Source of the DNA: Alcanivorax sp.
GTDB taxonomy: Bacteria > Pseudomonadota > Gammaproteobacteria > Pseudomonadales > Alcanivoracaceae
Length of the DNA stretch: 64,000 nt
Direction of reading: 5' to 3'
Assembly: GCA_042090255.1 (NCBI GenBank)
Contig: JBELJS010000010.1
Span: forward strand, 8,491 to 72,490
The stretch's first letter is position 1; each line of letters begins with the position of its first letter. Below the pieces are notes generated by a model. That model saw nothing but the letters and a program-made list of their open reading frames with translations. It had not been told where the DNA came from and searched no databases. The position numbers and the translations under genes were made by a program. Shown here piece after piece: positions 2,525-21,872 of this stretch.

Positions 2525-3709
2525 CTAATGAAGCAAACGCCGGGCTAATAACGCATAGTCCAGCATTTTCCTGGCCATTTTTTCGGATTCTTTCGCCATC
2601 GCCCTTAAATCAACGATTCCCGAACTGATTTTCCCGAGTATAGAATCGATATCTTGCTCACCGCTAACCACCCAACCGTTGTCTTTTGTATAGATGTTAT
2701 GCCCCTCGAGATCCTCAAGGACTGGCACACAACGGCAGCACAGGCTGGTCTGCATGGTAGCGGACTGACTGCCCGGCTGCAGGTAGACGTCCGCACCACA
2801 GAGCAATGCCCGCAGTTCGGCGGGGGTCCGCCAGCCCCAGAACTCAATCCGGTCGTCAGAGTCGATCAGCGCCTGGGCCTGCTCACGGATGTCGTCGAGC
2901 AGGGAGCCAACGAGTACCAGCCGGAAGCGCGGATCAGGGTTGCCGATGAACGCTTTCAGAGTATCTAGAAGTCTTTTGGAAGCGGACTGTTTACCCGATT
3001 GCACGAACAGCACCTGGTCATTGGTCAAGCCCAGTTCCTGGCGTGTGCCTTCTCTAAGGGCGTTGTATTCGTCATCCTCGACCGGGTGACCGCCCAACGG
3101 GTAAAACTCCAGCTTCTCCTCCGGAACACCGTAAAACGTCCTCGCGAACTTTCCAGTCAGCGCCGAGATATAGAGAATTTTGTCGATCCAAGGAAGACAC
3201 AAGTGCACGATGGGTCGGTAATAAAGATAGTGCAGGCCCCACTTGGAGACAGGACCACGGGCGCTGTTGATAAAGTCCGTGTGGGTATCCACGTAAAACT
3301 TCACCTCCGGATGGGCCTTCTTATAGCGGCTGACGGTCACCAGCTCCCAGCCGCACATGCCGTGGAACAGGATCGAGTCCGGCTCGAAGTCTTCCAGGAA
3401 CTGATAGACGCCTCTATGTGGCCTTAGGCTTTTCGCCACGGTATGGGGTACCCATGGATGATAGGGCAAACGAATCACTTCGATGCCCCGCTTACAGCGA
3501 TAATGGCCCGGTTTTACGAACTCACGACGCCGGTCCGTGGTGAAGATCTGCGTCGACGCGATGACCAGCACCTCATGCCCCTGCCGCACGTGCTCTTCCA
3601 CCAGTTCGTTTTCCTGATAGGCCCGGTCATCCATGTAGTAGTTGGACAGGCAAATGTGGGCTATTCTCATAATCGGTTGACCACTATCAGAGTTTGCTGC
3701 GTCACCCAT
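2525..3709 (-). CDS. Glycosyltransferase family 4
   Basis: 394-aa ORF. The start overlaps the wbpO stop by 1 nt (TAATG), which suggests translational coupling. An alternative start is MRIAHICLS at 3670. Confidence 0.7.
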
Positions 3710-4992
3710 TAAAGCCGTAGATCGACGGCTTCTTTGGGCAGCACGTATTTCAGGTCGTAGAGGACGTGCGGGTCGCGGCCCAGTTGGCGGAATTCGCTGG
3801 CGGGCATCGCCTTGAACTCGTCGTGGGCCACGGCCAGGACGACACCGTCATAGCTGGCCACCTGCGGCTTCTCGATGGGCTGGATGCCGTATTCCCGGTA
3901 GGCCTCATCCGGGTTGATCCAGGGGTCGTAGACGTCGACGGTGACGTTGTAGTCCTGGAGCTCGCGGATCACGTCGATCACCCGAGTGTTGCGCAGGTCC
4001 GGGCAGTTTTCCTTGAAGGTCAAGCCCATCACCAGTACCCGGGCGCCGTTGACTTGGATGCATCGGTCCAACATGGCCTTAACCAACTCGCTGGCCACGA
4101 AACGGCCCATGCCGTCGTTGATGCGCCGCCCGGAGAGGATCACTTCCGGGTGGTAACCCACCGCCTGGGCTTTGTGGGTCAGGTAGTAAGGGTCCACGCC
4201 GATGCAGTGGCCACCCACCAGGCCAGGGCGGAACGGCAGGAAGTTCCACTTGGTACCGGCGGCTTCCAGTACCTCCTGGGTGTCGATGTTCATGCGCTTG
4301 AAGATCATCGCCAGTTCGTTGACCAGGGCGATATTCAGGTCTCGCTGGGTGTTCTCGATCACCTTGGCGGCTTCCGCCACCTTGATGCTGGAGGCCCGGT
4401 GGGTGCCGGCGGTAATCACCGAGGCATAGAGCCGGTCCACGGTATCCGCCACTTCCGGAGTGGAGGCGGCCGTGACCTTCATGATGTCGGTGACGCGGTG
4501 GAGCTTATCGCCCGGGTTGATGCGCTCCGGGCTGTAGCCGGCATAAAAGTCCTGGTTAAAGGTGAGACCGGAGACCCGCTCCAGCACCGGTACGCAGTGC
4601 TCCTCGGTGGCACCGGGGAATACCGTGGACTCGTAAATCACGATGTTGCCGGGCTTGAGGGTCTTGCCGATGGTCTCGGACGCCTTGATCAGCGGCGTCA
4701 GGTCCGGCTGGCGGTGCTCATCGATGGGGGTGGGCACCGTGACGATATAGACGTTACAGCCTTCCAGTGCCGCCGGATCGTCGCTGAACGCCAGACCCTC
4801 CGAGGCGGCCAGCTCCGCGTCGCTGAGCTCCCGGGTGAAATCGTGCCCTTCGCGCAGGTCGCGGATGCGGTCGCGGTTCACGTCGAAGCCCACCACCGGG
4901 CGGTGCTTGCCGAACTCCGCGGCCAGGGGCAGGCCCACATAGCCGAGGCCGATCACGGCCAGTTTGATGTCTTCCAGGGAGGGGTGGGTCAT
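3709..4992 (-). CDS. wbpO: UDP-N-acetyl-D-glucosamine 6-dehydrogenase, WbpO/TviB family
   Basis: N-terminal [17 protein letters not shown] Rossmann motif. 427 aa with the nucleotide-sugar dehydrogenase layout. It neighbours the WbpP-like epimerase. Confidence 0.85.
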
Positions 4993-5048
4993 TCTCTTTT
5001 ACCTTGTCTGATCCGGCCTGCGGTTGGGTTAGATTGTACTGATGTAGG

Positions 5049-5060
5049 CACGCTACCGCC
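5049..5060 (-). promoter_or_regulatory. ops (operon polarity suppressor) element, RfaH recruitment site
   Basis: Reverse complement of 5049-5060 is GGCGGTAGCGTG, identical to the enterobacterial ops/JUMPstart core. It lies about 55 nt upstream of the wbpO start. Confidence 0.8.
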
Positions 5061-5120
5061 GCAGGGATTGCCGTCGGTTCCCTGAGGACGGATGCGTTGC
5101 CGGTTTGTCTCTGAGTGGCA

Positions 5121-5182
5121 GGTCTCTGGGATCCTGCCGGCCGGCTTTGCCGGCCTTTCGCGGGCTGGGCCCGCTCCTACAA
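5121..5182. repeat. REP type 1, single arm
   Basis: ggtctctgggatcctgcc + ggccggctttgccggcc hairpin + tttcgcgggctgggcccgctcctacaa. The rfaH stop codon (5177-5179) lies inside it. Confidence 0.9.
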
Positions 5183-5674
5183 CATACTTATGTCTTTCAG
5201 GGCCAGGGTGAGGCGGTGCTGCTTGTGGAGCATGTTGAGCAGCACGATGGCGCGCTCCTGGCCGTCGAAGCGGTGAAATACCGCTTCCATGTCCGCAAAG
5301 GGACCGTGTTCGATGCGCAGGCGGTCGCCCGGACGCAGCGCGGAGCGGTCGTCATTGGCGCTGGTCTGGGTTTGCAGCTTGAGGGCATCGATCACGGAGG
5401 GCGGCACCGCCGCCGGGCGGTCGCCGAAGGCCACTAGTTTGGTCACGCCCCGGGTGGAGCGGATGGTGTGCCAGCCACTGCCCTGCTCGGACAGTTGGAT
5501 AAAGAGGTAGCCGGGGAACAGGGGTTCCTGCCGCTGCACGCGCCGGCCGGCGCGTACCTTTTCAATGCAGAGCTGGGGCTGAAAGCAGGTAAAGCCCTGA
5601 TTTTCCAGGTTCTCCTGGGCCCTGTAGTTCTGGTTGGCGCGGCACTGAACCACGTACCAGCCTGAATCGCTCAT
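5177..5674 (-). CDS. rfaH: Transcription antiterminator RfaH (NusG paralog)
   Basis: 165 aa. GWYVVQCRANQNYRAQENLENQG and EPLFPGYLF align by eye with E. coli RfaH along the whole length. Confidence 0.9.
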   Translation of the reverse strand: MSDSGWYVVQCRANQNYRAQENLENQGFTCFQPQLCIEKVRAGRRVQRQEPLFPGYLFIQLSEQGSGWHTIRSTRGVTKLVAFGDRPAAVPPSVIDALKLQTQTSANDDRSALRPGDRLRIEHGPFADMEAVFHRFDGQERAIVLLNMLHKQHRLTLALKDISML

Positions 5675-5962: not shown

Positions 5963-6925
<963 letters not shown>

Positions 6926-6961
6926 TCAGTACTTTTTCAGGCCTGCATGCAGACATCACTG

Positions 6962-9175
6962 TTAATTTTTTTCGCTATCGTAATGATAGGCGTAGTAGCC
7001 GTATTCGTTACTAGCACGGCGCTCAATAGCGTTTAGAATCGCCCCTTTAATTTCCACACGATTTTGTTCGAAGCGGTGCACGCTGACATCCACTTCCTTA
7101 GCAGAGTTCACGCCGTAACGGGCGACGATCAGGCTGGTGCCGGCCTGCTGGCCGATGATAGCGGCGTCGGTGACGGCGAGGATCGGCGGGGTGTCCACCA
7201 GTACCAGGTCGTACTCGGCGGAGAGCCTCTCCATCAGCTCCTTGAAGCGGGAGTGCATGAGCAGCTCCGCCGGGTTGGGCGGGATCTGGCCGCGCGGGAT
7301 AAAGTGTAGGTTTTCCACCTTGGTCTCATGGATGGCCTGCTGGTACTCCGCCTGGCCGGAGAGCACGTCGGAGAGACCCATGTCGTTCTGGTTTTCGAAG
7401 TAGCGGTGCAGGTGGCCCTTGCGCATGTCCGCGTCGATCACCACGACCTTCTGGCCGACCTGGGCGAGCACCGCCGCCAGGTTGGCGGAGATAAAGGACT
7501 TGCCGACCTCCGGGCTGGGGCCGGAGATCATCATCACCTTGTTGGAGGCTTCCATCATGGCGAAGTGGAGGCTGGTGCGCAGGCTGCGCAGGGCCTCGAT
7601 GGCCAGATCCGCCGGGTCGTTGATGGCGAGCAGCGGGATCGGCTCGTGCTTGGAGCGCTTGCGGCGGCGCATCATGGCCACCAAGCGGTCGAGCTTCTGC
7701 TGATGTTCGGACAGAGGGACGGCAGCGTAGACCGGGATGCCCTGCTCTTCCAGTTGGTCCGGGGTTTCAATACCGCGATGCAGCAGGCCCGCACCTAGCA
7801 CATAGCCGGCTGATAGCATCAGGCCGAGCACGCCGGCCAATGCTATCACCAAGTCTTTCTTGGGCTTTACCGGGGCGGGAGCAACCACAGCATCGTCAAT
7901 AATCCGCACGTTGCCCACCGTGCTGGCCTTCATGATGCGAAGTTCTTGAGCACGGTTCATCAACCCTACATAAATTTCTTGGTTCAGCTCGACGTCACGC
8001 ATCAGGCGCAGGATTTTTTGCTGGGTCTCCGGCAAGTTACCAATCTGCTTGTTCAACTGCGCTTTTTCTTGCTCCAGGGAGCGGCGTTGCTCCAGCAGCG
8101 TGCGGTAGGCAGGATGCTCCTTGGTAAACTTGGAAGCCACTTCACTTTCTTTAATTTTCAGTTCGTTGAGCTTCGCTTCCATGGACACCAGTCTGCCAAG
8201 TAGCGACTGGGTTTCTAGTTCCATGTCCACTGAGTCTCGTTGCAAGCGGTACTCGTTGAGTTTTTCTTCCGCGGCAGTCAACTTGGCTTTGAGTTCCGGC
8301 AACTGTTCGTCCAGAAACGCCAAGCTTTTCTCGGCTTCGGCGGCCTGCCGGTTAATGTTCTGCAGCAGATAGTTGTCCGCTACCGCGTCCAATTCCTTCT
8401 GAATACGTTCCGGACTAGAGCCGGCCAGCGTTACATTAAGGATACCTGTGTCTGCACCCTTCTGCTGTGCCTCAAGCCGACTGCGCAAATTGTTCACCGC
8501 AGCCAGTCGGGATTGACGAATCAGGGTCAACGGCTCGCCGCCGTACTGCCATTCGCCAAGTTCCAGGGCAGTACTATTGTCTGCGCTGGCGAGCACCTGA
8601 TCGGCGGGACCGCCGAGGACTTTCTGCTCGTTGTAATACAAAATAGGATGGCCCCGGTCGTCAGCGGCGAGGGTAAATTCAGCCCCACGAAGATTATCTG
8701 GAACGGTGAAACGCTTAACAGTCACCAGGGTTTTGCTGTCGCGATAGCCGGCGAATAAAGGGCGGGGCGAACCCGGGGAGGCGGGTCCCGGTGCGCCTAG
8801 GGCACCCAGTACCGGGATGCGGTCCGGCGCAACCAGGATATCGGTTTGCAGTTGTTCCACTACATTACCCAGCACCATCCGTGACGTCAGAATGGCGATT
8901 TCCGCCGCCGTTGAGGACTCCTGGCCGAGCGCTTCGTTTAGCTCTTCGAAACCCGGCAACCCACTCTGCTTCTTTTCCACCTGCAGCAGGGCGTCCGCTT
9001 TATAGATCGGCGTTGCCAGGAACGCGTAGGCGGCGCCCAGCAACAGGGCCAGAACCGTTGTACCCAGGATCAACCAGCGGGCATCGACCAGCAGCCCCCA
9101 CAGCCGGTGCAGGTCGATATCCTCATCCATGGAGACGGCGCTTCTTCCTCGGGCGGTGTCTGGGCGGTTACTCAT
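6962..9175 (-). CDS. wzc: Polysaccharide co-polymerase / tyrosine autokinase Wzc (PCP-2a)
   Basis: 737 aa. N-terminal TM segment, long coiled-coil periplasmic region, Walker A GPSPEVGKSF, and a C-terminal Tyr cluster NEYGYYAYHYD. Confidence 0.9.
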   Translation of the reverse strand: MSNRPDTARGRSAVSMDEDIDLHRLWGLLVDARWLILGTTVLALLLGAAYAFLATPIYKADALLQVEKKQSGLPGFEELNEALGQESSTAAEIAILTSRMVLGNVVEQLQTDILVAPDRIPVLGALGAPGPASPGSPRPLFAGYRDSKTLVTVKRFTVPDNLRGAEFTLAADDRGHPILYYNEQKVLGGPADQVLASADNSTALELGEWQYGGEPLTLIRQSRLAAVNNLRSRLEAQQKGADTGILNVTLAGSSPERIQKELDAVADNYLLQNINRQAAEAEKSLAFLDEQLPELKAKLTAAEEKLNEYRLQRDSVDMELETQSLLGRLVSMEAKLNELKIKESEVASKFTKEHPAYRTLLEQRRSLEQEKAQLNKQIGNLPETQQKILRLMRDVELNQEIYVGLMNRAQELRIMKASTVGNVRIIDDAVVAPAPVKPKKDLVIALAGVLGLMLSAGYVLGAGLLHRGIETPDQLEEQGIPVYAAVPLSEHQQKLDRLVAMMRRRKRSKHEPIPLLAINDPADLAIEALRSLRTSLHFAMMEASNKVMMISGPSPEVGKSFISANLAAVLAQVGQKVVVIDADMRKGHLHRYFENQNDMGLSDVLSGQAEYQQAIHETKVENLHFIPRGQIPPNPAELLMHSRFKELMERLSAEYDLVLVDTPPILAVTDAAIIGQQAGTSLIVARYGVNSAKEVDVSVHRFEQNRVEIKGAILNAIERRASNEYGYYAYHYDSEKN

Positions 9176-12294: not shown

Positions 12295-12299
12295 TGGCG

Positions 12300-12423
12300 G
12301 CTTCCTATCCTGATGGTTGGTATGTTTCCCCGGTCCCTGGGGCGAGGATTATCACCCGCAAGTTTTGTCATGCCTATGACACGCAGCGGCATTTTACATT
12401 GTGTTTACGATATTGCTAACCCC
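12300..12423. repeat. Conserved intergenic element, copy 1 (upstream of wzi)
   Basis: About 125 bp, similar to 16506-16630. The core is tatcacccgcaagttttgtca(t/c)gcctatgaca...gcattttacattgtgttt. It contains the palindrome TGTCATnnnnATGACA at 12366-12381. On the minus strand it has TAGGCA (12371-12376), a 17-nt spacer and GATAAT (12348-12353). Confidence 0.85.
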
Positions 12424-12449
12424 GGGTGACAGAACAGCACTCCCCCGGG

Positions 12450-13910
12450 TCATTTGCCACTGGATGGGCGCAATCGGCCGGTTAGGCTGGACACCAGCTT
12501 ACGCAGATCGGCGGCCGGGAGGAGCTTCAGGGCCACGACGGCAACGACCATGGCCAGCAGCAGCAAGGTCTTGGCGATGATCGCCAGCCATAGAGGCACC
12601 TCCGAGGCATCGATCCAGACACCCAAGAAGGATAGCCCGGCGAAACAAAGCATCGCCAGGAAGGCGTTGGACCAGGCGTAGGGGACGGGATAGAGCCGCT
12701 GGCTGATCCACACCCAGCCAAGAAAGAACACCAAGGCACTGGCCAGGGTGGCGATGGCGGCACCGGTGACACCAGCCAGCGGCACCAGGGCCAGGTTGGC
12801 GACCACGCTGACCGTGGCGGACACCAGGGTAAGCCAGAACTGCCAGTAGGTTTTCTTGGTGATCACGATGCCCGGCGCGAAAATGTACATCTGAGACATC
12901 AGCATGGCGGGGGCCAGATAAATCACCAACGACGCCGCCTCGGCATAGGCCGGCTTGGCCAGGACCAGGATCGCTTCCCGGGCGAACGCCGAGAGGAACA
13001 GGCAGGCCGGGAAGGCGAATGCCAGAAACCAACCGAACAGAGTGGCGATTTCACCGGGTGTCTCGGGACGCCGGTGGTTTTCATAGATCAGCGGCGTCAG
13101 CGCTGCTCTGATGCCTATGATCAACAAGGCGGCGATGCCGGCGATGCGGCTGGCGATGCCGAACACACCCACCTCTTCCAGCGACATGAAGTGGTTGAGC
13201 GCCAGCCTGTTCACGTACAGGTTCAGGAACACTAGAAAACCCGCCGGCACCAGAGGCGCCGAGAACCGCAGCATCTTCTTCAGCAGACGGGTGTCGAACA
13301 ACGGGCCGTAACTGGACCGCAGCATGTAAAAACAGGCCAATGACGCGCTCGCGGCGGCCATAAACTGGGCCAGCATCACCCCAACCAGCTTCATATCCAG
13401 AAGCACACAGAACAGCACGGCAAAACACACCGTCAGGAGCGCGTAGGCGACACTAACGGACGCATAGGCCCGGCTTCTCAACTGCCAGCGGAACTGGTTG
13501 AGCAGCAGCAGATAAAGGCCGTTGGCAGCAATGAACAACAGCCCCATGCGAAATGCGGGCAGATACTCCGAATCTCCGAGGAGCGTTGCCGTCAGCGGCT
13601 CGGCGAACCACAGCGCCACGGCCAGCCAGAAACCGTACATGCCGAGGGAGAAAAACAGGGCGGTGCTGGCCAGGCGTCGTTTCTCATCAGCATCGGCGGC
13701 CTCGGCCCAATGCCGGGCCAGCCCCTGGGATATCTCCAGGGCGATAGTCAGATTGGCCAGGGCGCCGAGGGTGATCAGTAAATCATAGGCACCGTACTGT
13801 GAAACCGTGAGAACGTGGGTGTACAAAGGCAACAGGAAAAACGCCATACCTCTAGAAAGTACGGTCGCAAGACCGTAAATGAGACTGTCTCGCAATGCGG
13901 CTTTAAGCAT
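12450..13910 (-). CDS. wzx: Oligosaccharide-unit flippase Wzx (MOP/PST family)
   Basis: 486 aa with about 12-14 hydrophobic segments, in polysaccharide-locus context. It overlaps the upstream gene by 8 nt. Confidence 0.8.
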   Translation of the reverse strand: MLKAALRDSLIYGLATVLSRGMAFFLLPLYTHVLTVSQYGAYDLLITLGALANLTIALEISQGLARHWAEAADADEKRRLASTALFFSLGMYGFWLAVALWFAEPLTATLLGDSEYLPAFRMGLLFIAANGLYLLLLNQFRWQLRSRAYASVSVAYALLTVCFAVLFCVLLDMKLVGVMLAQFMAAASASLACFYMLRSSYGPLFDTRLLKKMLRFSAPLVPAGFLVFLNLYVNRLALNHFMSLEEVGVFGIASRIAGIAALLIIGIRAALTPLIYENHRRPETPGEIATLFGWFLAFAFPACLFLSAFAREAILVLAKPAYAEAASLVIYLAPAMLMSQMYIFAPGIVITKKTYWQFWLTLVSATVSVVANLALVPLAGVTGAAIATLASALVFFLGWVWISQRLYPVPYAWSNAFLAMLCFAGLSFLGVWIDASEVPLWLAIIAKTLLLLAMVVAVVALKLLPAADLRKLVSSLTGRLRPSSGK

Positions 13911-15207
13911 CAGGACTCGCCGGCTGGTTTAACAATTTTGCAAGCTGTTGTTTCAGTTCAGATTTACCTTCCAGCCGAAAAGCCGGCCACCCGAAATGGT
14001 CAACAATATAGCGACCCACCAAAACAATCTGGTCTTGGTCAACACCGCAACCATGAACATATGAGAGCTCTTTGGCTGAGCAGAGCCAACTCGCAGGCAC
14101 GTCGCCGTTTAGCAGCCGCAGATAACGTTGAGCGACCAATCGATTGTCCCACCGACTGTGAATAAAATCGCGTGCGGCCAGCCCCAACTCAGTACGATAC
14201 TTGTGATCGTCGATCAAATTCGCCACGGCTTCCTCCAGCTTATCCGGCATGACATAAACACTCGGAGGCATGTCGTCGCTGGCGATATAATCGCTGGCGC
14301 ATTCAGAAAAGTAGCCCGCCACTACCGTGGGTTTGCCAAAGTGGGCAGCCTCGGTGGCAAAAAAAGCCATAGGCGAATCTGAGTACAACTGGTCGATCAC
14401 GAAATCACACCGGGCCAGCTCTTCCCTCACTTTAGAGTTCGGCACGCCCTTTAGCTCTATGAAATCAATCAAATAGCCTTTCTTCTGAAGCCTGCTCACC
14501 ACTGCACGTATTTCATCAGAGCCTTTGATTAACGGTTTCGAAGGGCTGTGAAGAATACGCACTGCGCGATCTGTCTGTGCGACATCCGTAGCCATCGTAT
14601 GATTCGCTCGTGAAACAGGCACCCCCATTGAAAACCAGTTAACGAAATCTCTCCGATGGAACTGCCCGGTGCCAGGAGCATTGACGACGTAATCAGCTTT
14701 ACGCTCCTGAAACCAAACCTTCTTCGATACTTTCTTAGAGGCGTGGACAGCCCGCGTTGCTGCTTGAGCAGAAGGCACACCTGAAATGCTGCCACCACTC
14801 AGATAAGGCGGGCGACAGTCACTACCAAGATAGACGAATATTATTTTTTTGTTCATTGAGCGCAATAAAAAAAGCTCAAAGCGAGTGTTGGTTATGGTTT
14901 TTCCGTATACGAATATATAAGCGTCAAAAATAAAGGCAGAGTAAAAGAGGACCAACCAAGAGAGCAAGAACTGAAGCCCCCAGACCACACCCTTTAATGG
15001 CAGGGGCATCGACGCATTCTTTGCACGAAAGCTTCCTAAACAGCGCCAAATTCGAACTACCACAGGCTGCTTATCATCCGCGCCATCATAACCAAATGGG
15101 TGGGAAGCGGACAGATAGCTTTCAGCGGACACACCGATAGACCGTAAACCGCTAGTCAAGCCCGCCACAAAGCCAGCCACTTCAACGGTACCTAGCATTA
15201 CTTTCAT
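13903..15207 (-). CDS. Unknown-function protein, paralog A (possibly a divergent GT-B transferase)
   Basis: 434 aa, collinear with the 16755-18047 product. Shared blocks are VNAPGTGQFHR, FVNWFSMGVPVS, VRILHSPSKPL.KGS, IDFIELKGVPN.KVREELARCDFVIDQLYSD.PMAFFATEAAH.GKP.VV. One hydrophobic segment lies near residues 73-95. AT-richer than paralog B. Confidence 0.85.
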   Translation of the reverse strand: MKVMLGTVEVAGFVAGLTSGLRSIGVSAESYLSASHPFGYDGADDKQPVVVRIWRCLGSFRAKNASMPLPLKGVVWGLQFLLSWLVLFYSAFIFDAYIFVYGKTITNTRFELFLLRSMNKKIIFVYLGSDCRPPYLSGGSISGVPSAQAATRAVHASKKVSKKVWFQERKADYVVNAPGTGQFHRRDFVNWFSMGVPVSRANHTMATDVAQTDRAVRILHSPSKPLIKGSDEIRAVVSRLQKKGYLIDFIELKGVPNSKVREELARCDFVIDQLYSDSPMAFFATEAAHFGKPTVVAGYFSECASDYIASDDMPPSVYVMPDKLEEAVANLIDDHKYRTELGLAARDFIHSRWDNRLVAQRYLRLLNGDVPASWLCSAKELSYVHGCGVDQDQIVLVGRYIVDHFGWPAFRLEGKSELKQQLAKLLNQPASPDA

Positions 15208-15248: not shown

Positions 15249-15374
15249 CTAGCGCTCAAAGGCCTCGCTTTTTTTTGATCCCTGTGCCAATTGGCCCGGA
15301 CGCAAAACCTCGACCACAGACTCAATCGCCTGCTCGCTGATATTGGGTCTCGACAGGTTGATCATACGGCTCAC
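15249..15374 (-). pseudogene. 5' remnant of a DegT-family aminotransferase gene
   Basis: The minus strand reads (GTG)[24 protein letters not shown], identical to the N-terminus of the 18068-19192 product. It then diverges and stops after 41 codons. It keeps the same GTGA overlap with the upstream SDR gene. Confidence 0.8.
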
Positions 15375-16357
15375 TTACTCTGGAAAAGAGCCGGCATTTC
15401 CGGCAAATCGTCCATATTCTTGGAGATCCACTCACCGGTGCGGAGCAGCCCCTCTTCCAAGTCCACGCGCGCTTCGAAATCGATCAGCTCTTTGGCTTTA
15501 TCCACATTGGGGATGCGCAGCTCGATATCCGCGGAAAGAGCGTCCCTGAAGACGATTTTCGACTTGGAATTCAGTACCCGGCAAATGGTTTGCGCCAGGC
15601 CATAGATCGTCGTGACGGCTCTGGCATTACCGATATTAAAGGACTCGCCTATGGCCTTGGGCATGACCAGGGCCTTCATCAAGGCGTCGATCATATCGTC
15701 GATGTAACACCAAGCACGTATCTGAGCGCCGTCGCCAAAGATATAGATGTCTTCGTTTTTCAGCGCTTTGCGGATCATGATGGAGATAGCGCCCTCGCCG
15801 ATCTGGCCGGGGCCATACACATTAAAAGGCCGGAACGTGACCGTCGGCAGGTTGTGCTGGCGGTGGTAGGCATGGGTCAGGTGCTCGCCGGCCAACTTAC
15901 TGACGGCGTAGGTCCAGCGCGCCTCCCCCACCGCACCGGTGGTAGTGGAATCCACTTCTTCCACGCGGTAGGCCCGCGACCCGAAGACCTCGGAGGTGGA
16001 GAACTCGAGGAAACGCTCGACGGTGCCAGCGGACTGGGCCGCCTCCAGCGCGTTGGCGGTACCGACCATGTTCACGGTCATGGTGTTGACCGGATTAACC
16101 AGGGTATTGTCGATGCCCGCAATCGCGGCGGCGTGGATGAACACTTCCGCCCCCCGGGCCGCTTCTTTGAGAGATTCGCTATCGAGAATATCGCCTTGTT
16201 TCACGGTCAGGTTCTTGTGCCCATACGCAGCACTGCGTTCCAGCGAATTGCGACTGAGGTTGTCGTACGCGACGATCTCGTTGTCTTCGATCAGCTTTCC
16301 AATCAGGGTAGAGCCAATAAATCCGGCACCGCCGGTAATGAAGATCCGTTTTCCTTT
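15301..16357. repeat. Perfect direct repeat, copy 1 (~1057 bp)
   Basis: Offset is 3818 nt to 19119-20175. All ORF-track translations in several frames are identical across the two copies. Identity decays at 15287-15300 and breaks at 16358 and 16365. Confidence 0.9.
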
Positions 16358-16363
16358 GAGCAT
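15371..16363 (-). CDS. NAD-dependent epimerase/dehydratase (extended SDR, ArnA C-terminal-domain-like), copy 1
   Basis: [27 protein letters not shown] (RWxYxxSK as in ArnA-type UDP-GlcA oxidative decarboxylases), FRPFNVYGP. The protein is identical to the 19189-20181 product. Confidence 0.85.
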
Positions 16364-16505
16364 GACGTCTTTCCTTTTTAAGACACTGCAATATTAAAAA
16401 ACGCTTAGGCGCTATCTCTATTCTCTATTTATTGAGGCATCAAGATTTCAGCAAACCAATCCGCCGCTGGGCGACCTCATCGCCAACCAGAAGAGCTGCT
16501 CTGCA

Positions 16506-16630
16506 GCTTCCTATCCTGATAATTTGTGTGTAGATCCCATCTTCCTGGGTCGAGGAGTATCACCCGCAAGTTTTGTCACGCCTATGACAGGCAGACGCAT
16601 TTTACATTGTGTTTCCTATACTGCTAACCC
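16506..16630. repeat. Conserved intergenic element, copy 2 (upstream of SDR copy 1)
   Basis: Similar to 12300-12423. On the minus strand: TAGGCG (16579-16584), 17-nt spacer, GATACT (16556-16561). Confidence 0.85.
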
Positions 16631-16754
16631 TGAGCGACTAAACGGTCAAAGGATTCTGTTGGATTGCTGGGCTGGGCCAGCTACCAAAGGGGTCATTGAT
16701 ACCGCGGGCCTTCTGTCGCGCAGTGCCGGGCTGAACATTTTCGTCCTCAAGTGG

Positions 16755-18047
16755 CTAACTTAACAGGTGCGCAAGGCGTTCTTCCAAGGCAGGCTTTCCC
16801 CGGAGCTGAAATGCATCCCATCCGTAGTGATCGAATATATAGTGGCCCATGGCTTTGAATTCTTTCTCAGACACCCCCAGCCCGCCCAGGTACGATAGTT
16901 CCGCTGGCGAGCACCACCAACTGTCGGGCACGTCATCGTTGAGCAAGGCCAGATAACGCCGTGCCACTGCCTCGTTACGCCAGCGTCCGCGCACAAAATG
17001 GCGGGCGGCGGCGCCCAACTTGGCCCGGTAATCCCTGTCATCAATAAGGCGGGCTACGGCTTCTTCTAGCTGATCCGGCAATACATAGGCGCTGGGTGGG
17101 ATGTCCTCGCTATGGAGGTACCGGTTCACGTAAGTGGAGAAATATCCCCCAACCACCGCGGGCTTTCCGTAGTGTGCCGCCTCGGTGGCGAAGAATGCCA
17201 TCGGCGTGTCGGAGTAGAGCTGGTCGATAACAAAGTCACAGCGCGCCAGCTCCTCTCTGACTTTAGCGTTCGGGACGCCTTTCAGCTCTATAAAGTCAAT
17301 GGCATAACCCCTTTTCCTGAGACTGGCGATTACAGCGCGTATCTCATTGGACCCTTTCAAAAGGGGTTTCGAGGGGCTATGGAGGATACGTACCGGGCGG
17401 CTTTCCTGGGTGTCGCCCTCGGGAGGCGACTCCTCGGCTTCCGATACCGGGACGCCCATGGAAAACCAGTTCACAAACTTCTTGCGGTGAAACTGGCCAG
17501 TGCCCGGCGCATTCACCATGTAATGCGCGTAGCGCTCCTGAAACTGAACTGCTTTTGATACCTTTCTTGATGCTCTAACGACTCTTGGCGCCGCTTTATC
17601 AGGGGCCATACCCGCGCAATAGCCGCCGCTCATGTACGGCGGGCGGGAATCACTGCCCAGGGAGACGAATATTATCTTTTTCCCGAGAAGGCGCAGTAAC
17701 CACAACTCGAAGCGGGTATTGGTGAACGTCTTTCCAGCAACGAAAATATAGGCGTCGAATAGACGTACCGAACGGAACAGAACGAACCAGGCGATCACGT
17801 TCTGGGCCGCGAGAAGGGCCGCCCGGATAAGGAACGGCAACGGGGGCGTCCTCTGAAACAAGGTCCCCAGATGCCGCCAAATGCGGACGGTCGGGCTTTT
17901 CTTCTCCTCCTCGTCGCCATAGGAGAAAGAATGCCGCTCCGATACATAGCTTTCGGCATCGACGCCGAGCTTCCGTAGACCCTGAACCAGATTGGCGACG
18001 AAGCCAGCAGTTTCCACGGGCGCAATCAGCACTTTCATGTCACGCAT
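16755..18047 (-). CDS. Unknown-function protein, paralog B (possibly a divergent GT-B transferase)
   Basis: 430 aa, collinear with paralog A with roughly 60 percent identity by eye. It shares the same conserved blocks and the same hydrophobic segment. Confidence 0.85.
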   Translation of the reverse strand: MRDMKVLIAPVETAGFVANLVQGLRKLGVDAESYVSERHSFSYGDEEEKKSPTVRIWRHLGTLFQRTPPLPFLIRAALLAAQNVIAWFVLFRSVRLFDAYIFVAGKTFTNTRFELWLLRLLGKKIIFVSLGSDSRPPYMSGGYCAGMAPDKAAPRVVRASRKVSKAVQFQERYAHYMVNAPGTGQFHRKKFVNWFSMGVPVSEAEESPPEGDTQESRPVRILHSPSKPLLKGSNEIRAVIASLRKRGYAIDFIELKGVPNAKVREELARCDFVIDQLYSDTPMAFFATEAAHYGKPAVVGGYFSTYVNRYLHSEDIPPSAYVLPDQLEEAVARLIDDRDYRAKLGAAARHFVRGRWRNEAVARRYLALLNDDVPDSWWCSPAELSYLGGLGVSEKEFKAMGHYIFDHYGWDAFQLRGKPALEERLAHLLS

Positions 18048-18067
18048 TCCCGCCCCCTGCTGCTGGT

Positions 18068-19192
18068 CTAGTCAACGCCTGATAACACCGCCGTCAAACT
18101 CTCGGCAACCTGGCGTATCTGGTCCGGCGTCATGCGCTCATACAGCGGCAGCGCCAGTCCCTGGGCGTACAAATTCGGCCCCACTTCGCATGTACCCGAC
18201 GCAGGCCCGTAGAGACCGATTTCCTGCATGCTCTGGGCGCCGAGATTGGATTCGATGCCCGCCGCCTTGAGCTTCGCTATCACCTCGGCGCGATCAAAAC
18301 GGCCATTGAGCACCACCATGAAGGTCTGCCAGCTGTGGCCCGGATCGGCGTTTGGCAGGGTCAACAACCCCTCACCGGCGAGCGCGGCCAGATTTTCCAT
18401 GTACAGCGCGGCTAGCTCTCGACGATCACTGACCCAGCCGTCCAAGGACGGTAACTGGGCCCGACCCAACGCCGCCTGGAAGTTCGTTAGCCGATAGTTC
18501 AGCGACGGCTCCACAAAGCGCATACCGGTATCGGTACGCTCCATACCGTGGTTGCGGAGGCGACGCGCCCGTTGGGCCAGCTCTTGATTGTCGGTGGTCA
18601 GCAACCCGCCCTCGCCGGTGGTCAGGGTCTTGCGCGGGTGAAAGGAAAAACAAGCCAGATCACCAAAGGTGCCGGTTTGACGCCCGTTGAGGTTCGCCCC
18701 CAAAGCGCAGGCCGCGTCTTCGACCACATAAAGACCGTGCTTTTCCGCGATGCCGCTGATCGCGGTCATGTCGGCGGGATGCCCGAATTCGTGGACCGGC
18801 ATCACGGCCCTCAAGCGCTCTGGACCGCGCCAGCCTTCGATGATCTCGCGCAACCGCTGTGGATCCAGGTTGTAGGTATCCGCCCTGACATCCACCAACA
18901 CGGGGCGTGCGCCCACGGCCACTACTGCATTTGCCGTGGCGGGAAAGGTAAAGTCAGGAATCAGGACCGCGTCGCCAGCGCCAACATCGAGGGTCATCAA
19001 CGCCAAGTGCAACGCCGCGGTGCCCGAGGACACCAGAATGGCCTCCCGGGAGCCGAGATACGCGGCCAGTTCTTGTTCAAAGGTTTCGCTTTCGGGGCCA
19101 TGCACCAATTGCCCCGAGCGCAAAACCTCGACCACAGACTCAATCGCCTGCTCGCTGATATTGGGTCTCGACAGGTTGATCATACGGCTCAC
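18068..19192 (-). CDS. DegT/DnrJ/EryC1/StrS-family sugar aminotransferase (PLP-dependent), GTG start
   Basis: 374 aa. [34 protein letters not shown] (PLP-lysine region). It overlaps the upstream SDR gene by 4 nt. Confidence 0.85.
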
Positions 19193-20175
19193 TTACTCTG
19201 GAAAAGAGCCGGCATTTCCGGCAAATCGTCCATATTCTTGGAGATCCACTCACCGGTGCGGAGCAGCCCCTCTTCCAAGTCCACGCGCGCTTCGAAATCG
19301 ATCAGCTCTTTGGCTTTATCCACATTGGGGATGCGCAGCTCGATATCCGCGGAAAGAGCGTCCCTGAAGACGATTTTCGACTTGGAATTCAGTACCCGGC
19401 AAATGGTTTGCGCCAGGCCATAGATCGTCGTGACGGCTCTGGCATTACCGATATTAAAGGACTCGCCTATGGCCTTGGGCATGACCAGGGCCTTCATCAA
19501 GGCGTCGATCATATCGTCGATGTAACACCAAGCACGTATCTGAGCGCCGTCGCCAAAGATATAGATGTCTTCGTTTTTCAGCGCTTTGCGGATCATGATG
19601 GAGATAGCGCCCTCGCCGATCTGGCCGGGGCCATACACATTAAAAGGCCGGAACGTGACCGTCGGCAGGTTGTGCTGGCGGTGGTAGGCATGGGTCAGGT
19701 GCTCGCCGGCCAACTTACTGACGGCGTAGGTCCAGCGCGCCTCCCCCACCGCACCGGTGGTAGTGGAATCCACTTCTTCCACGCGGTAGGCCCGCGACCC
19801 GAAGACCTCGGAGGTGGAGAACTCGAGGAAACGCTCGACGGTGCCAGCGGACTGGGCCGCCTCCAGCGCGTTGGCGGTACCGACCATGTTCACGGTCATG
19901 GTGTTGACCGGATTAACCAGGGTATTGTCGATGCCCGCAATCGCGGCGGCGTGGATGAACACTTCCGCCCCCCGGGCCGCTTCTTTGAGAGATTCGCTAT
20001 CGAGAATATCGCCTTGTTTCACGGTCAGGTTCTTGTGCCCATACGCAGCACTGCGTTCCAGCGAATTGCGACTGAGGTTGTCGTACGCGACGATCTCGTT
20101 GTCTTCGATCAGCTTTCCAATCAGGGTAGAGCCAATAAATCCGGCACCGCCGGTAATGAAGATCCGTTTTCCTTT
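19119..20175. repeat. Perfect direct repeat, copy 2 (~1057 bp)
   Basis: See 15301-16357. Confidence 0.9.
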
Positions 20176-20181
20176 AAGCAT
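19189..20181 (-). CDS. NAD-dependent epimerase/dehydratase (extended SDR, ArnA C-terminal-domain-like), copy 2
   Basis: 330 aa, identical to the 15371-16363 product. Confidence 0.85.
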
Positions 20182-20195
20182 GCTGCGTTATCTCT

Positions 20196-21287
20196 CTACG
20201 ATTCGGTGGTGGCCGCCAGGACACGGGCTATGCGCTCCACGTCCTCTGGCGAAAGGTATGGATGCATTGGCAAACTGACCACCTGCTCCGCGGCTTTGTC
20301 GCCCACCGGCAGGGACACGCTGGCGTCCCCCACGGCCGGCTGTCGATTGAGCGGGATCGGGTAATGCACAGCCGTCGGAATACCGGCGGCGGCAAGTGCC
20401 TCACGTACTGCGTCTCGTTGTTCCACACGGATGGTGTATTGCGCCCAGGCACTGGTATTGCCGGGCTCACAGTGCGGCACGGTTACCGCACCCAGCTCGT
20501 CGAGCAGTTCGTTATAGCGTGTCGCCACCTGATTACGCAGGGCGATTTCTTCCTGCAGCAGATCGAGTTTGGGTAACAGTATGGCGGCTTGCAGAGTATC
20601 CAGGCGGCTGTTGATGCCGACTCTGACGTGGTGATAGCGGCGGTCCTGGCCGTGCCTGGCGATCTGCCGCATCACCTTGGCCAGGTCTTCGTGGTCGGTG
20701 AAGATAGCACCACCGTCGCCGTAGCACCCGAGCGGCTTGCTGGGGAAAAAGCTGGTACAGCCGATGGTGCTCAGGGCGCAGGACTTGCCGCCGTGGCTAC
20801 TGGCGCCGAAGCTCTGGGCCCCGTCTTCGATAACCGGAAGGCTGTGTTTTTCGGCTATCCGATTGATGGTTTCAAAATCCGCGCATTGCCCATATAGAGA
20901 GACAGGAATAATTGCTTTGGTTCTCGGGGTTATCGCCGCTTCCATCGCCGCTGGACTGATATTGTAGGTGCGCGGCTCAATGTCCACATAGACTGGCTTT
21001 GCACCCAACAGGGCCGGGGTCTCGGCAGTGGCGATATAGCTGAAACCCGGCACAATGACTTCGTCTCCCGGGCCGATACCCAGCGCCATCTGAGCGATTT
21101 GCAGGGCATCGGTACCGTTAGCGACGGTAATACAGTATTTCACCCCGAGATAAGCAGCGAGGCGTTCTTCAAGCTCATCCACTTCCGGCCCCAGAATATA
21201 CTTGCCGTGGGCTAGAACACGTTGGATGTTCTCGTCGATGGTGTCTTTGATGCGGGCTTGCTGGGCAGCGAGATCGATGAACTGCAT
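20196..21287 (-). CDS. wbpE: UDP-2-acetamido-2-deoxy-3-oxo-D-glucuronate aminotransferase, WbpE family (DegT)
   Basis: MQFIDLAAQQARIK...HGKYILGPEV.ELE..LA.YLGVKY, SFFPSKPLGCYGDGG. It abuts the WbpD-like gene. Confidence 0.8.
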   Translation of the reverse strand: MQFIDLAAQQARIKDTIDENIQRVLAHGKYILGPEVDELEERLAAYLGVKYCITVANGTDALQIAQMALGIGPGDEVIVPGFSYIATAETPALLGAKPVYVDIEPRTYNISPAAMEAAITPRTKAIIPVSLYGQCADFETINRIAEKHSLPVIEDGAQSFGASSHGGKSCALSTIGCTSFFPSKPLGCYGDGGAIFTDHEDLAKVMRQIARHGQDRRYHHVRVGINSRLDTLQAAILLPKLDLLQEEIALRNQVATRYNELLDELGAVTVPHCEPGNTSAWAQYTIRVEQRDAVREALAAAGIPTAVHYPIPLNRQPAVGDASVSLPVGDKAAEQVVSLPMHPYLSPEDVERIARVLAATTES

Positions 21288-21872
21288 TCAGGCGGCCTCG
21301 CTCTTGCGGACGGTCTGTCCGCTCAGGGTATAGACGGCGCCGGTGTGCTCGCACACCACCTTTCCTTCGCCGCTGAGCGGCAAATCAAGCTGCTCGCCGA
21401 ACTCGCTCATCCAACCGATCTGTTTGCCGGGCACACCCACCACAAGAGCGTAATCGGGCACGTCTTTATTGATCACCGCGCCAGCGCCCACGAAGGCGAA
21501 AGCACCAACGGTCACGCCGCACACCAGGGTGCAATTGGCGCCCAGGCTGGCGCCCTTCTTTACCAGGGTGTCGCGGTATTCGTCCTTGCGCTCGATCAGC
21601 GAGCGAGGGTTGTAGACGTTGGTGAACACCATGCTCGGGCCGCAGAACACGCCCTCTTCCAGATGCACGTTGTCGTACACCGAAACGTTATTCTGGATTT
21701 TGCAATTGTCGCCGATGGTAACCTTATTGCCGACGAAAACGCCCTGCCCCATGGACACGTTACGCCCGATGCGGGCGCCGCCGCATACATGGACGAAGTG
21801 CCACACCCGTGAGCCGCTGCCAATTTGTGCGCCGTCATCCACAATGGCGCTTTCGTGAACCTGGTAATCCAT
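21288..21872 (-). CDS. wbpD: UDP-2-acetamido-3-amino-2,3-dideoxy-D-glucuronate N-acetyltransferase, WbpD family (left-handed beta-helix)
   Basis: Hexapeptide repeats, [16 protein letters not shown]. 194 aa, directly upstream of wbpE. Confidence 0.8.

Follow-up and report, generated by a model that had tools for sequence, protein, structure and literature searches.

Two genes for a short-chain dehydrogenase/reductase (SDR), set in tandem cassettes of a surface-polysaccharide locus of the marine gammaproteobacterium Alcanivorax sp. (assembly GCA_042090255.1, contig JBELJS010000010.1), share a direct repeat of 1,057 nucleotides (nt) without a single difference. The repeat is most likely the result of a recent, nearly full-length gene conversion between SDR copies that were duplicated long ago. 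The stretch of DNA that was analyzed, 64,000 nt in length, is referred to here as the window, and the letters A and B denote the two cassettes with their SDR, aminotransferase (AT) and glycosyltransferase (GT) genes. A sequence-only reading of this DNA had described positions 15301–16357 and 19119–20175 as base-for-base identical at an offset of 3818 nt and had proposed a comparison of the window with itself. This self-comparison returned one uninterrupted identical run of 1,057 nt, free of mismatches when read position by position, and an independent short-read assembly agrees with it. The features concerned are as follows.

19119–20175, minus strand: copy B of the perfect repeat, 1,057 nt, from codon 3 of SDR-B to its stop plus the first 65–74 nt of AT-B; equal to contig L020 of the Logan assembly
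15301–16357, minus strand: copy A of the perfect repeat, 1,057 nt, from codon 3 of SDR-A to its stop plus the start of the AT stub; the presumed conversion tract
19189–20181, minus strand: SDR-B, an extended SDR of 330 amino acids, probable UDP-uronate C4-oxidase/decarboxylase (Pfam Epimerase, E 1e-55; PDB 8vr2, E 8e-179, then UXS, E 1e-37)
15371–16363, minus strand: SDR-A, protein identical to SDR-B, with its own conserved ribosome-binding region AAAAAGGAAAGACGTCATG
18068–19192, minus strand: AT-B, sole intact copy of the DegT-family sugar aminotransferase gene (Pfam DegT, E 4e-111; PDB 8vr3/8vr5/9bgp, E ~1e-131)
15249–15374, minus strand: AT-A stub, a pseudogene of 41 codons; the first 25 lie inside the repeat and equal the AT-B N-terminus, the next ~16 are diverged yet homologous

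The copies lie 2.76 kb apart, and each holds the SDR gene from codon 3 to the stop followed by the first 65–74 nt of a DegT aminotransferase gene. Beyond the perfect run, a weaker similarity at the same offset extends 6 nt further 5′ and ~45 nt further 3′. The two SDR genes are thus paralogous 330-codon open reading frames (ORFs) of one genome with the same translation. The translations also bear out that one copy runs into an intact aminotransferase gene and the other into a 41-codon remnant whose first 25 codons are the same. Chance can be excluded as the source of the identity, because in related genomes the same two genes differ from one another at 100–184 of ~1,100 sites.

The related loci comprise ~30 contigs (labelled L with a number), independent metagenome contigs among them. 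The two-cassette order recurs in L013/L105, L016, L019/L104, L101 and L102; those that were aligned (L013, L016, L019 and L101) are collinear with the window at 87–90%. Within this common architecture, the identity of the two SDR copies of a genome is graded.

L019/L104: 83.3% identity between SDR-A and SDR-B; longest identical tract 20 nt (P = 0.995 under uniform spread)
L013/L105: 91.0% identity, with 93–99% in 100-nt windows of the 3′ half; longest identical tract 141 nt (0 of 20,000 permutations)
L101: 98.8% identity; longest identical tract 1,018 nt (nt 46–1063)
Window: 100% identity over the tract; longest identical tract 1,057 nt (nt 7–1063)

In L101 (Ga0310345_10003725, copies at 3043–4126 and 6848–7931), all 11 mismatches fall in the first 45 nt, and the tract ends at the same 3′ position as that of the window. 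Since the window SDR is no more than 88% like either copy of L101, this homogenization must have been a separate event. The gradation across lineages identifies the window as the extreme of a recurrent gene conversion, that is, of concerted evolution, and the apparent clustering of the SDR paralogues by genome supports the same view. The recent gene conversion that had been suggested from the sequence is therefore upheld by related genomes of the same architecture, whose SDR copies are 83–99% alike.

The limits of the tract are equally informative. It begins at the start codon, where homology between the cassettes begins, and it ends 65–74 nt into the AT stub, where divergence between A and B climbs sharply. 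Past this point the stub continues as PGQLAQGSKKSEAFER, which is diverged yet still homologous to AT-B (~45 nt at ~70% identity) and which keeps characters specific to copy A that are common to L013 and L019. The homology past the tract and the retention of these copy-A characters imply that an interior was replaced without a new junction being formed, as expected of gene conversion. The process would be a non-reciprocal homologous recombination, presumably RecA-dependent, that replaced practically all of the homologous segment in one SDR copy of the window strain. The donor would most simply be SDR-B, a direction that is favored by the ~100% identity of the block holding SDR-B with the single-cassette contig L001. 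As the SDR proteins of the two cassettes are 96–98% identical even where their DNA is only 83% alike, and as the ratio of nonsynonymous to synonymous substitution rates (dN/dS) is 0.01–0.03 for both copies, the conversion erased mostly silent differences.

The same kind of homogenization of paralogues by non-reciprocal homologous recombination is known from tufA/tufB of Salmonella and E. coli and from rRNA operons. The likeness extends to paralogues that cluster by genome, tracts that are bounded by homology and proteins under strong purifying selection. Unlike the near-uniform tuf genes, the SDR copies are homogenized in a patchy manner across lineages, from 83% to 100%. In addition, they are direct repeats only 2.8 kb apart within an operon-like polysaccharide locus, where deletion is a competing outcome.

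Conversion presupposes that the second copy was already in place, and the surroundings of the SDR genes contain the remains of a much older duplication.

16755–18047, minus strand: GT-B, 430 amino acids, glycosyltransferase of the GT-B fold (GT4-like); no Pfam hit, the fold being deduced from the paralogue GT-A
13903–15207, minus strand: GT-A, 434 amino acids, paralogue of GT-B; AlphaFold model (pLDDT 91) matching GT4 structures
12450–13910, minus strand: wzx flippase gene, sole intact copy (Pfam Polysacc_synt), with an 8-nt overlap with the stop of GT-A
16684–16738, minus strand: stub of the deleted wzx-B gene, its first 26 nt at 16713–16738 and its stop region at ~16684–16694
16503–16638, minus strand: second copy of the wzx–wzi intergenic element, 82% identical to 12297–12430 and 83% to L001
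12297–12430, minus strand: resident copy of this element, upstream of wzi
16364–16502, minus strand: decayed 3′ end of wbpE, recognized when aligned (A4) to the 3′ end of the wbpE gene of the window as well as to L107/L110, and weak alone in the element comparison

The spacer of 390 nt upstream of SDR-A was considered as plain intergenic DNA or as the remnant of an insertion sequence. Both views were rejected, for it resolves into the wzx stub, the second intergenic element and the wbpE stub. The wzx stub is recognized from the alignment of the window with L001, which stops 26 nt into the wzx gene of L001, and from a local alignment to the wzx 3′ end; its junction is common to L013, L016 and L019 (alignment A2). 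The order of element, wbpE stub and SDR-A is that of an old duplication junction, as expected if a tandem duplication had comprised the wbpE 3′ end, SDR, aminotransferase, glycosyltransferase, wzx and the element. In this scenario, a unit of ~5.4 kb with these genes and a promoter-like element would have been duplicated in tandem. The cassettes would then have lost complementary genes (wzx from B, the aminotransferase from A), and the glycosyltransferases would have diverged to 62% identity, the SDR copies staying similar enough to go on recombining.

This architecture must be old, because its junctions are common to lineages that are 10–13% diverged: the AT-A stub is found in L013, L015, L016 and L019 (alignment A3), and the flanks of SDR-A are orthologous to those of L013 and L019 at ~87%. 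For the same reason, the recent recombinational assembly that the sequence-only reading had offered beside gene conversion is not borne out. Its picture of two tandem modules, of which module A lacks its aminotransferase, holds, as do the three genes assigned to each module; the duplicated unit is larger, however, and includes the wbpE 3′ end, wzx and the intergenic element too. The divergence of the 430-codon genes, with an AT-richer copy A, is likewise confirmed (61.6% amino-acid identity; GC content of 49.7% in GT-A vs 56.8% in GT-B). A poly-A run in the AT-A stub (15268–15275) counts A8 in the window, A6 in L013 and A5 in L019; lying in a pseudogene, it is probably without function.

Loci with a single cassette also occur. 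B-type loci with an intact wzx are L001–L010, L021, L108 and L109, whereas L107 and L110 are of A type, with an intact A-type aminotransferase and a comparable element and wbpE-stub signature upstream of the SDR. In the latter two, the position of cassette B (3403–5513) holds an ORF of 330 amino acids and an ORF that by translation resembles an N-terminally truncated UDP-GlcNAc 2-epimerase. This suggests that cassette B was replaced in these loci, rather than never present. One shared duplication likely lies behind their junctions and those of the window type.

The intergenic element of ~136 nt contains the only sigma-70-like match of the region (TTAGCA-17-TAAAAT, 16627–16599, within 16503–16638). 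A shorter version lies upstream of the SDR in L107/L110 (~5566–5656), and Rfam scans of the window and the intergenic elements gave no match at the thresholds used. The element may represent a promoter or regulatory module that is portable and sits at the borders of cassettes.

Compared with L001, a Tara contig, the window is ~100% identical from 26000 down to ~18015 (core flank, wbpE, SDR-B and AT-B included) and 78–85% identical thereafter; the L001 SDR is 99.9% identical to the window SDR. The boundary at ~18015–18050, at the AT-B stop and GT-B start, has the appearance of a very recent capsule-locus exchange breakpoint between strains that are otherwise near-identical, one with two cassettes and the other with one.

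Several points weigh against the reading of an old duplication followed by recent conversion, or against parts of it. At the sites that separate the two copies of L019, the window SDR is mostly in the state of the L019 A copy (136 vs 37), and the SDR alleles are mosaic across lineages, so that phylogeny cannot name the donor and the direction of conversion is unproven. L001 could itself descend from a window-like ancestor. The low dN/dS of SDR-A could stem in part from repeated overwriting by the selected SDR-B and not from direct selection. The duplication junction of L107/L110 departs from the window type, its intergenic copy being shorter and its wbpE stub longer. A copy number above two for the 3.8-kb unit, or a mixed population, is compatible with the short-read graph. 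Finally, the sugar proposed below for the locus is assigned tentatively, from gene context and motifs. Naming the donor by sites diagnostic for A-type or B-type SDR was tried and failed, the L019 B copy being an outlier and the alleles mosaic.

In every lineage examined, SDR-A has kept its 330 codons as an intact ORF together with a conserved ribosome-binding region; AT-A and wzx-B, by contrast, have decayed. It must therefore be maintained, either under direct selection or because SDR-B repeatedly repairs it. Conversion would have created a new property, namely a perfect substrate of 1 kb for the deletion or amplification of the 3.8-kb segment with AT-B and GT-B. The repeats directly flank these two genes, and the other aminotransferase copy is the 41-codon stub; a deletion would thus leave wbpE, SDR, the AT stub and GT-A, with the irreversible loss of GT-B and the only intact aminotransferase. 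On this basis the repeats might be regarded as a recombination-driven capsule switch, operating by RecA-mediated deletion or amplification, with selection keeping the copies identical, and an excision of 3.8 kb had indeed been put forward as an on/off or structural switch. Perfect direct repeats of 1,057 nt at a distance of 2.76 kb are in general good substrates for such events, the deletion would leave only an AT stub, much as is said of the truncated bexA in the cap locus of Haemophilus influenzae type b (Hib), and L101 gained its tract of 1,018 nt independently.

The parallel with Hib deserves a closer look. The Hib cap locus reportedly carries a tandem duplication with a truncated bexA and loses its capsule by recombination (Hoiseth 1986; Kroll 1988), and reduction of the duplication to one copy is reported by Kroll and Moxon to leave the truncated bexA gene. 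Common to both systems are direct repeats in a capsule locus and the truncation of an essential gene in one copy, here the aminotransferase. In Hib, the repeats are whole loci of 18 kb flanked by IS1016, and both loss and amplification were reportedly shown by experiment. In the window, by contrast, insertion sequences are lacking, only one gene is repeated, the remainder of the cassettes has diverged and variants have not been observed.

Excision is mechanically possible, yet its use as a switch is improbable. The comparison of related strains found single- and two-cassette loci; the deletion product, with the order wbpE, SDR, AT stub and GT-A, was absent from the ~30 related contigs, a small sample in which short-read contigs often break at the repeat. 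Moreover, repeat identity is not a conserved feature of the locus, as sister lineages keep the architecture with repeats that are only 83–91% alike, too dissimilar to serve as a device of this kind. The deletion would be irreversible, and no recombinase, insertion sequence or inverted repeat lies nearby. It is just as doubtful that the second SDR copy and its recurrent homogenization are selected features that serve recombination-based deletion or amplification of the AT-B/GT-B cassette. If they were, the composition of the capsule could change, or the capsule could be shed, under pressure from phages or grazers, similarly to Hib cap and without insertion sequences.

A second alternative replaces the internal donor by an external one. 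SDR-A would have been overwritten by DNA transformed or transduced from a related, for instance L001-like, strain with an identical SDR allele, and this import may have been part of the capsule-locus exchange that produced the breakpoint near 18015. The identity of ~100% between the window and L001 up to the aminotransferase/glycosyltransferase boundary, followed by divergence, does indicate a very recent locus exchange in one of the two, the L001 SDR is 99.9% identical to that of the window and the alleles are mosaic across lineages. However, the tract ends match the limits of A/B homology within the window genome, and L013 and L101 were homogenized with their own, different alleles, as fits an intragenomic process. 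Import needs an extra coincidence and is unlikely; the outcome would be the same either way.

The repeat could also be an artefact of assembly or polishing, either because there is only one SDR copy or because slightly different copies were made identical by consensus. Perfect repeats of a kilobase are a classic source of trouble for assemblers. The Logan short-read assembly of run ERR12652125, made from the same genome, agrees with the window at 100% and lends the repeat independent support. Its contig L020 consists solely of the 1,057-nt repeat, which forms a single graph node with two different contexts on each side. Contig L012 (window 19148–16328) runs from the 3′ end of the repeat through AT-B, GT-B and the spacer to the repeat 5′ end, and L011 (window 15330–12693) leads from the repeat through the AT stub and GT-A to wzx. 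These contigs end 30 nt inside the repeat, as k = 31 predicts. Because L012 both begins and ends in the repeat, the path must cross it at least twice, most simply in the tandem order; the graph topology gives this minimum and cannot be read for the number of loop traversals, and bubble popping in the Logan assembly may mask a rare single-nucleotide difference between the copies. In several independent metagenomes where the copies differ, the two-copy order was assembled unambiguously. An artefact is thus very improbable. Contigs L014, L015, L017, L018 and L103 begin 97–207 nt upstream of GT-A, at the shared SDR 3′ end and AT stub; judging from these starts, assemblies of the locus are regularly interrupted by the repeat in other samples as well.

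A fresh tandem duplication in this strain, of which perfect identity would be the expected outcome, can practically be dismissed, since the surroundings are old and diverged (GT-A and GT-B share 62% and the intergenic-element copies 82% identity), the SDR-A flanks have their ~87% orthologues in L013 and L019, and a duplication of the SDR alone that landed exactly at the old SDR-A position is not credible.

The enzyme whose gene was converted is probably an UXS/ArnA-type UDP-uronate C4-oxidase/decarboxylase, as predicted from its motifs and relatives. The translation contains GGAGFIG (GxxGxxG), YAVSK (YxxxK) and STSEV (T-S-E). The replacement of T-D-E by T-S-E marks C4-oxidase/decarboxylases and distinguishes them from 4,6-dehydratases, as known from RmlB, UXS and ArnA. 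The best PDB match is 8VR2 (82% identity, E 8e-179), which the PDB lists under a generic name, followed by 6pmh, a UDP-glucose 4-epimerase related protein (E 3e-42), and then by UDP-glucuronate decarboxylases (E 1e-37). NCBIfam ranks dTDP-glucose 4,6-dehydratase first (E 1e-48), far under its cut-off, and the ArnA model matches weakly (E 3e-22; 78.6 bits against a cut-off of 777). Orthology to ArnA was rejected, the protein being a single domain of 330 amino acids without a formyltransferase domain and below the ArnA cut-off. The earlier description as "ArnA-like" therefore holds for the reaction class, on the strength of the T-S-E motif and the apparent kinship with UXS, and not for the family.

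The proteins of 430 and 434 amino acids, formerly left as "unknown", can now be described as glycosyltransferases of the GT-B fold. Neither gave a Pfam match at E <= 0.001, Glycos_transf_1 and Glyco_transf_4 included, and GT-B has only a weak match to a GT4 model of NCBIfam (E 0.0015). The AlphaFold model of GT-A (pLDDT 91, pTM 0.90) was matched by Foldseek to PglA, glycogen synthase, MshA and BshA at E 2e-8 to 1e-6 (TM ~0.5, probability 1.0). The predicted fold with two Rossmann domains is that of retaining GT4 enzymes of the GT-B fold such as PglA, MshA, BshA and PimA, although solved GT4 enzymes share only 10–15% sequence identity with the proteins described here and no Pfam model passes the threshold. 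Several sources apply the name glycosyltransferase to the large family of which both proteins are members. In many phyla, this gene stands almost always directly before wzx, often after SDR and aminotransferase genes. The assignments as Wzy polymerases or ATP-grasp ligases were dropped after the fold search. Between GT-A and GT-B, identity is 60–62% in all lineages, and purifying selection acts on both (dN/dS 0.12–0.26).

The closest structures to AT-B are 8VR3, 8VR5 and 9BGP (~1e-131), followed by perosamine synthetases and ArnB. Its start is more likely the ATG at 19183, which is gene-called in relatives and would give a protein of 371 amino acids. In the window, AT-B and GT-B are separated by 20 nt. 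In many distant genomes (among L022–L100), ~550–650 nt separate the aminotransferase from the glycosyltransferase gene, which is possibly space for a small extra gene, such as one for an N-acyltransferase.

The cassettes are part of a Wzx/Wzy-type capsule or exopolysaccharide locus (wza-wzb-wzc-wzi), with a GC content lower than that of the 64% backbone. All genes of the cassette region lie on the minus strand. In the direction of transcription, the order is ugd, a WbpD/WlbB-type acetyltransferase gene, wbpE, SDR-B, AT-B, GT-B, the 390-nt spacer, SDR-A, the AT stub, GT-A, wzx, wzi, wza, (wzb), wzc, wbpB, rfaH, a wbpA/tviB-type dehydrogenase gene and further transferase genes. The closest species-representative genome, Alcanivorax sp. 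UBA4485, is ~93% identical to the window in the flanks. The neighboring genes that bear on the sugar pathway and its regulation are listed here.

21288–21872, minus strand: wbpD/wlbB-type N-acetyltransferase gene (PDB 3mqg, E 4e-90)
20196–21287, minus strand: wbpE, directly upstream of SDR-B (PDB WbpE, E 2e-170)
5963–6922, minus strand: wbpB (PDB WbpB, E 2e-124)
5177–5674, minus strand: regulator gene rfaH (NCBIfam RfaH, 171.7 bits; cut-off 144.5)
3709–4992, minus strand: wbpA/tviB-type UDP-GlcNAc 6-dehydrogenase gene (NCBIfam TviB, 644 bits; cut-off 592)

The RfaH ops motif GGCGGTAG is not enriched in the window (4 found vs 2.4 expected) and is absent from the duplicated intergenic element. 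An exact copy at 5053–5060 (minus strand) lies in the leader that separates rfaH from the wbpA/tviB-type dehydrogenase gene. Compared with the 64.2% GC of the backbone, several segments are low in GC (260–1366, 45.2%; 1491–2510, 48.9%; wbpB at 5963–6922, 46.8%; GT-A at 13903–15207, 49.7%), which suggests that parts of the locus were acquired horizontally and from mixed sources.

From these neighbors, a sugar pathway can be proposed. WbpA, WbpB, WbpE and WbpD would make UDP-2,3-diacetamido-2,3-dideoxy-glucuronate (UDP-GlcNAc3NAcA), which the SDR would oxidize at C4 and decarboxylate to a 4-keto-pentose. AT-B would then aminate C4 to a 4-amino-pentose derivative, and GT-A and GT-B would each add this 4-amino-pentose or a related sugar, in different linkages. 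The scheme resembles other pairs of a UXS/ArnA-type decarboxylase and an ArnB-like aminotransferase, with the same GxxGxxG, YxxxK and T-S-E motifs in the SDR and a DegT aminotransferase next to it. The entries 8VR2, 8VR3 and 8VR5 may belong to the triacetamido-arabinose pathway of Psychrobacter cryohalolentis, which the searches did not confirm: literature searches for PDB 8VR2, 8VR3, 8VR5 and 9BGP and for later papers on this pathway found nothing. The window SDR is 82% identical to 8VR2, and here it adjoins homologues of WbpA, WbpB, WbpE and WbpD that would supply the 2,3-diacetamido-uronate. Unlike many relatives with their gap of ~600 nt, the window has no third N-acetyltransferase gene between the aminotransferase and the glycosyltransferase.

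The repeat offers a clean and well-bounded natural case of concerted evolution in a surface-polysaccharide locus. The process is a known one, and the current understanding of its mechanism is unchanged; what the wild lineages add is a series from no conversion through partial conversion to two independent full-length conversions. The locus also illustrates how genes come to be shared between duplicated cassettes, one of which keeps wzx and the other the aminotransferase, with the SDR staying doubled. On the practical side, capsule loci with repeats of this kind are broken or collapsed in short-read assemblies; a number of the related contigs stop right at this repeat, so that cassettes can be miscounted. 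Lastly, a widespread family of GT-B-fold glycosyltransferases that escapes Pfam is now placed beside a probable 2,3-diacetamido-4-amino-pentose pathway, a pairing that could inform studies of glycans in Alcanivorax-like bacteria.

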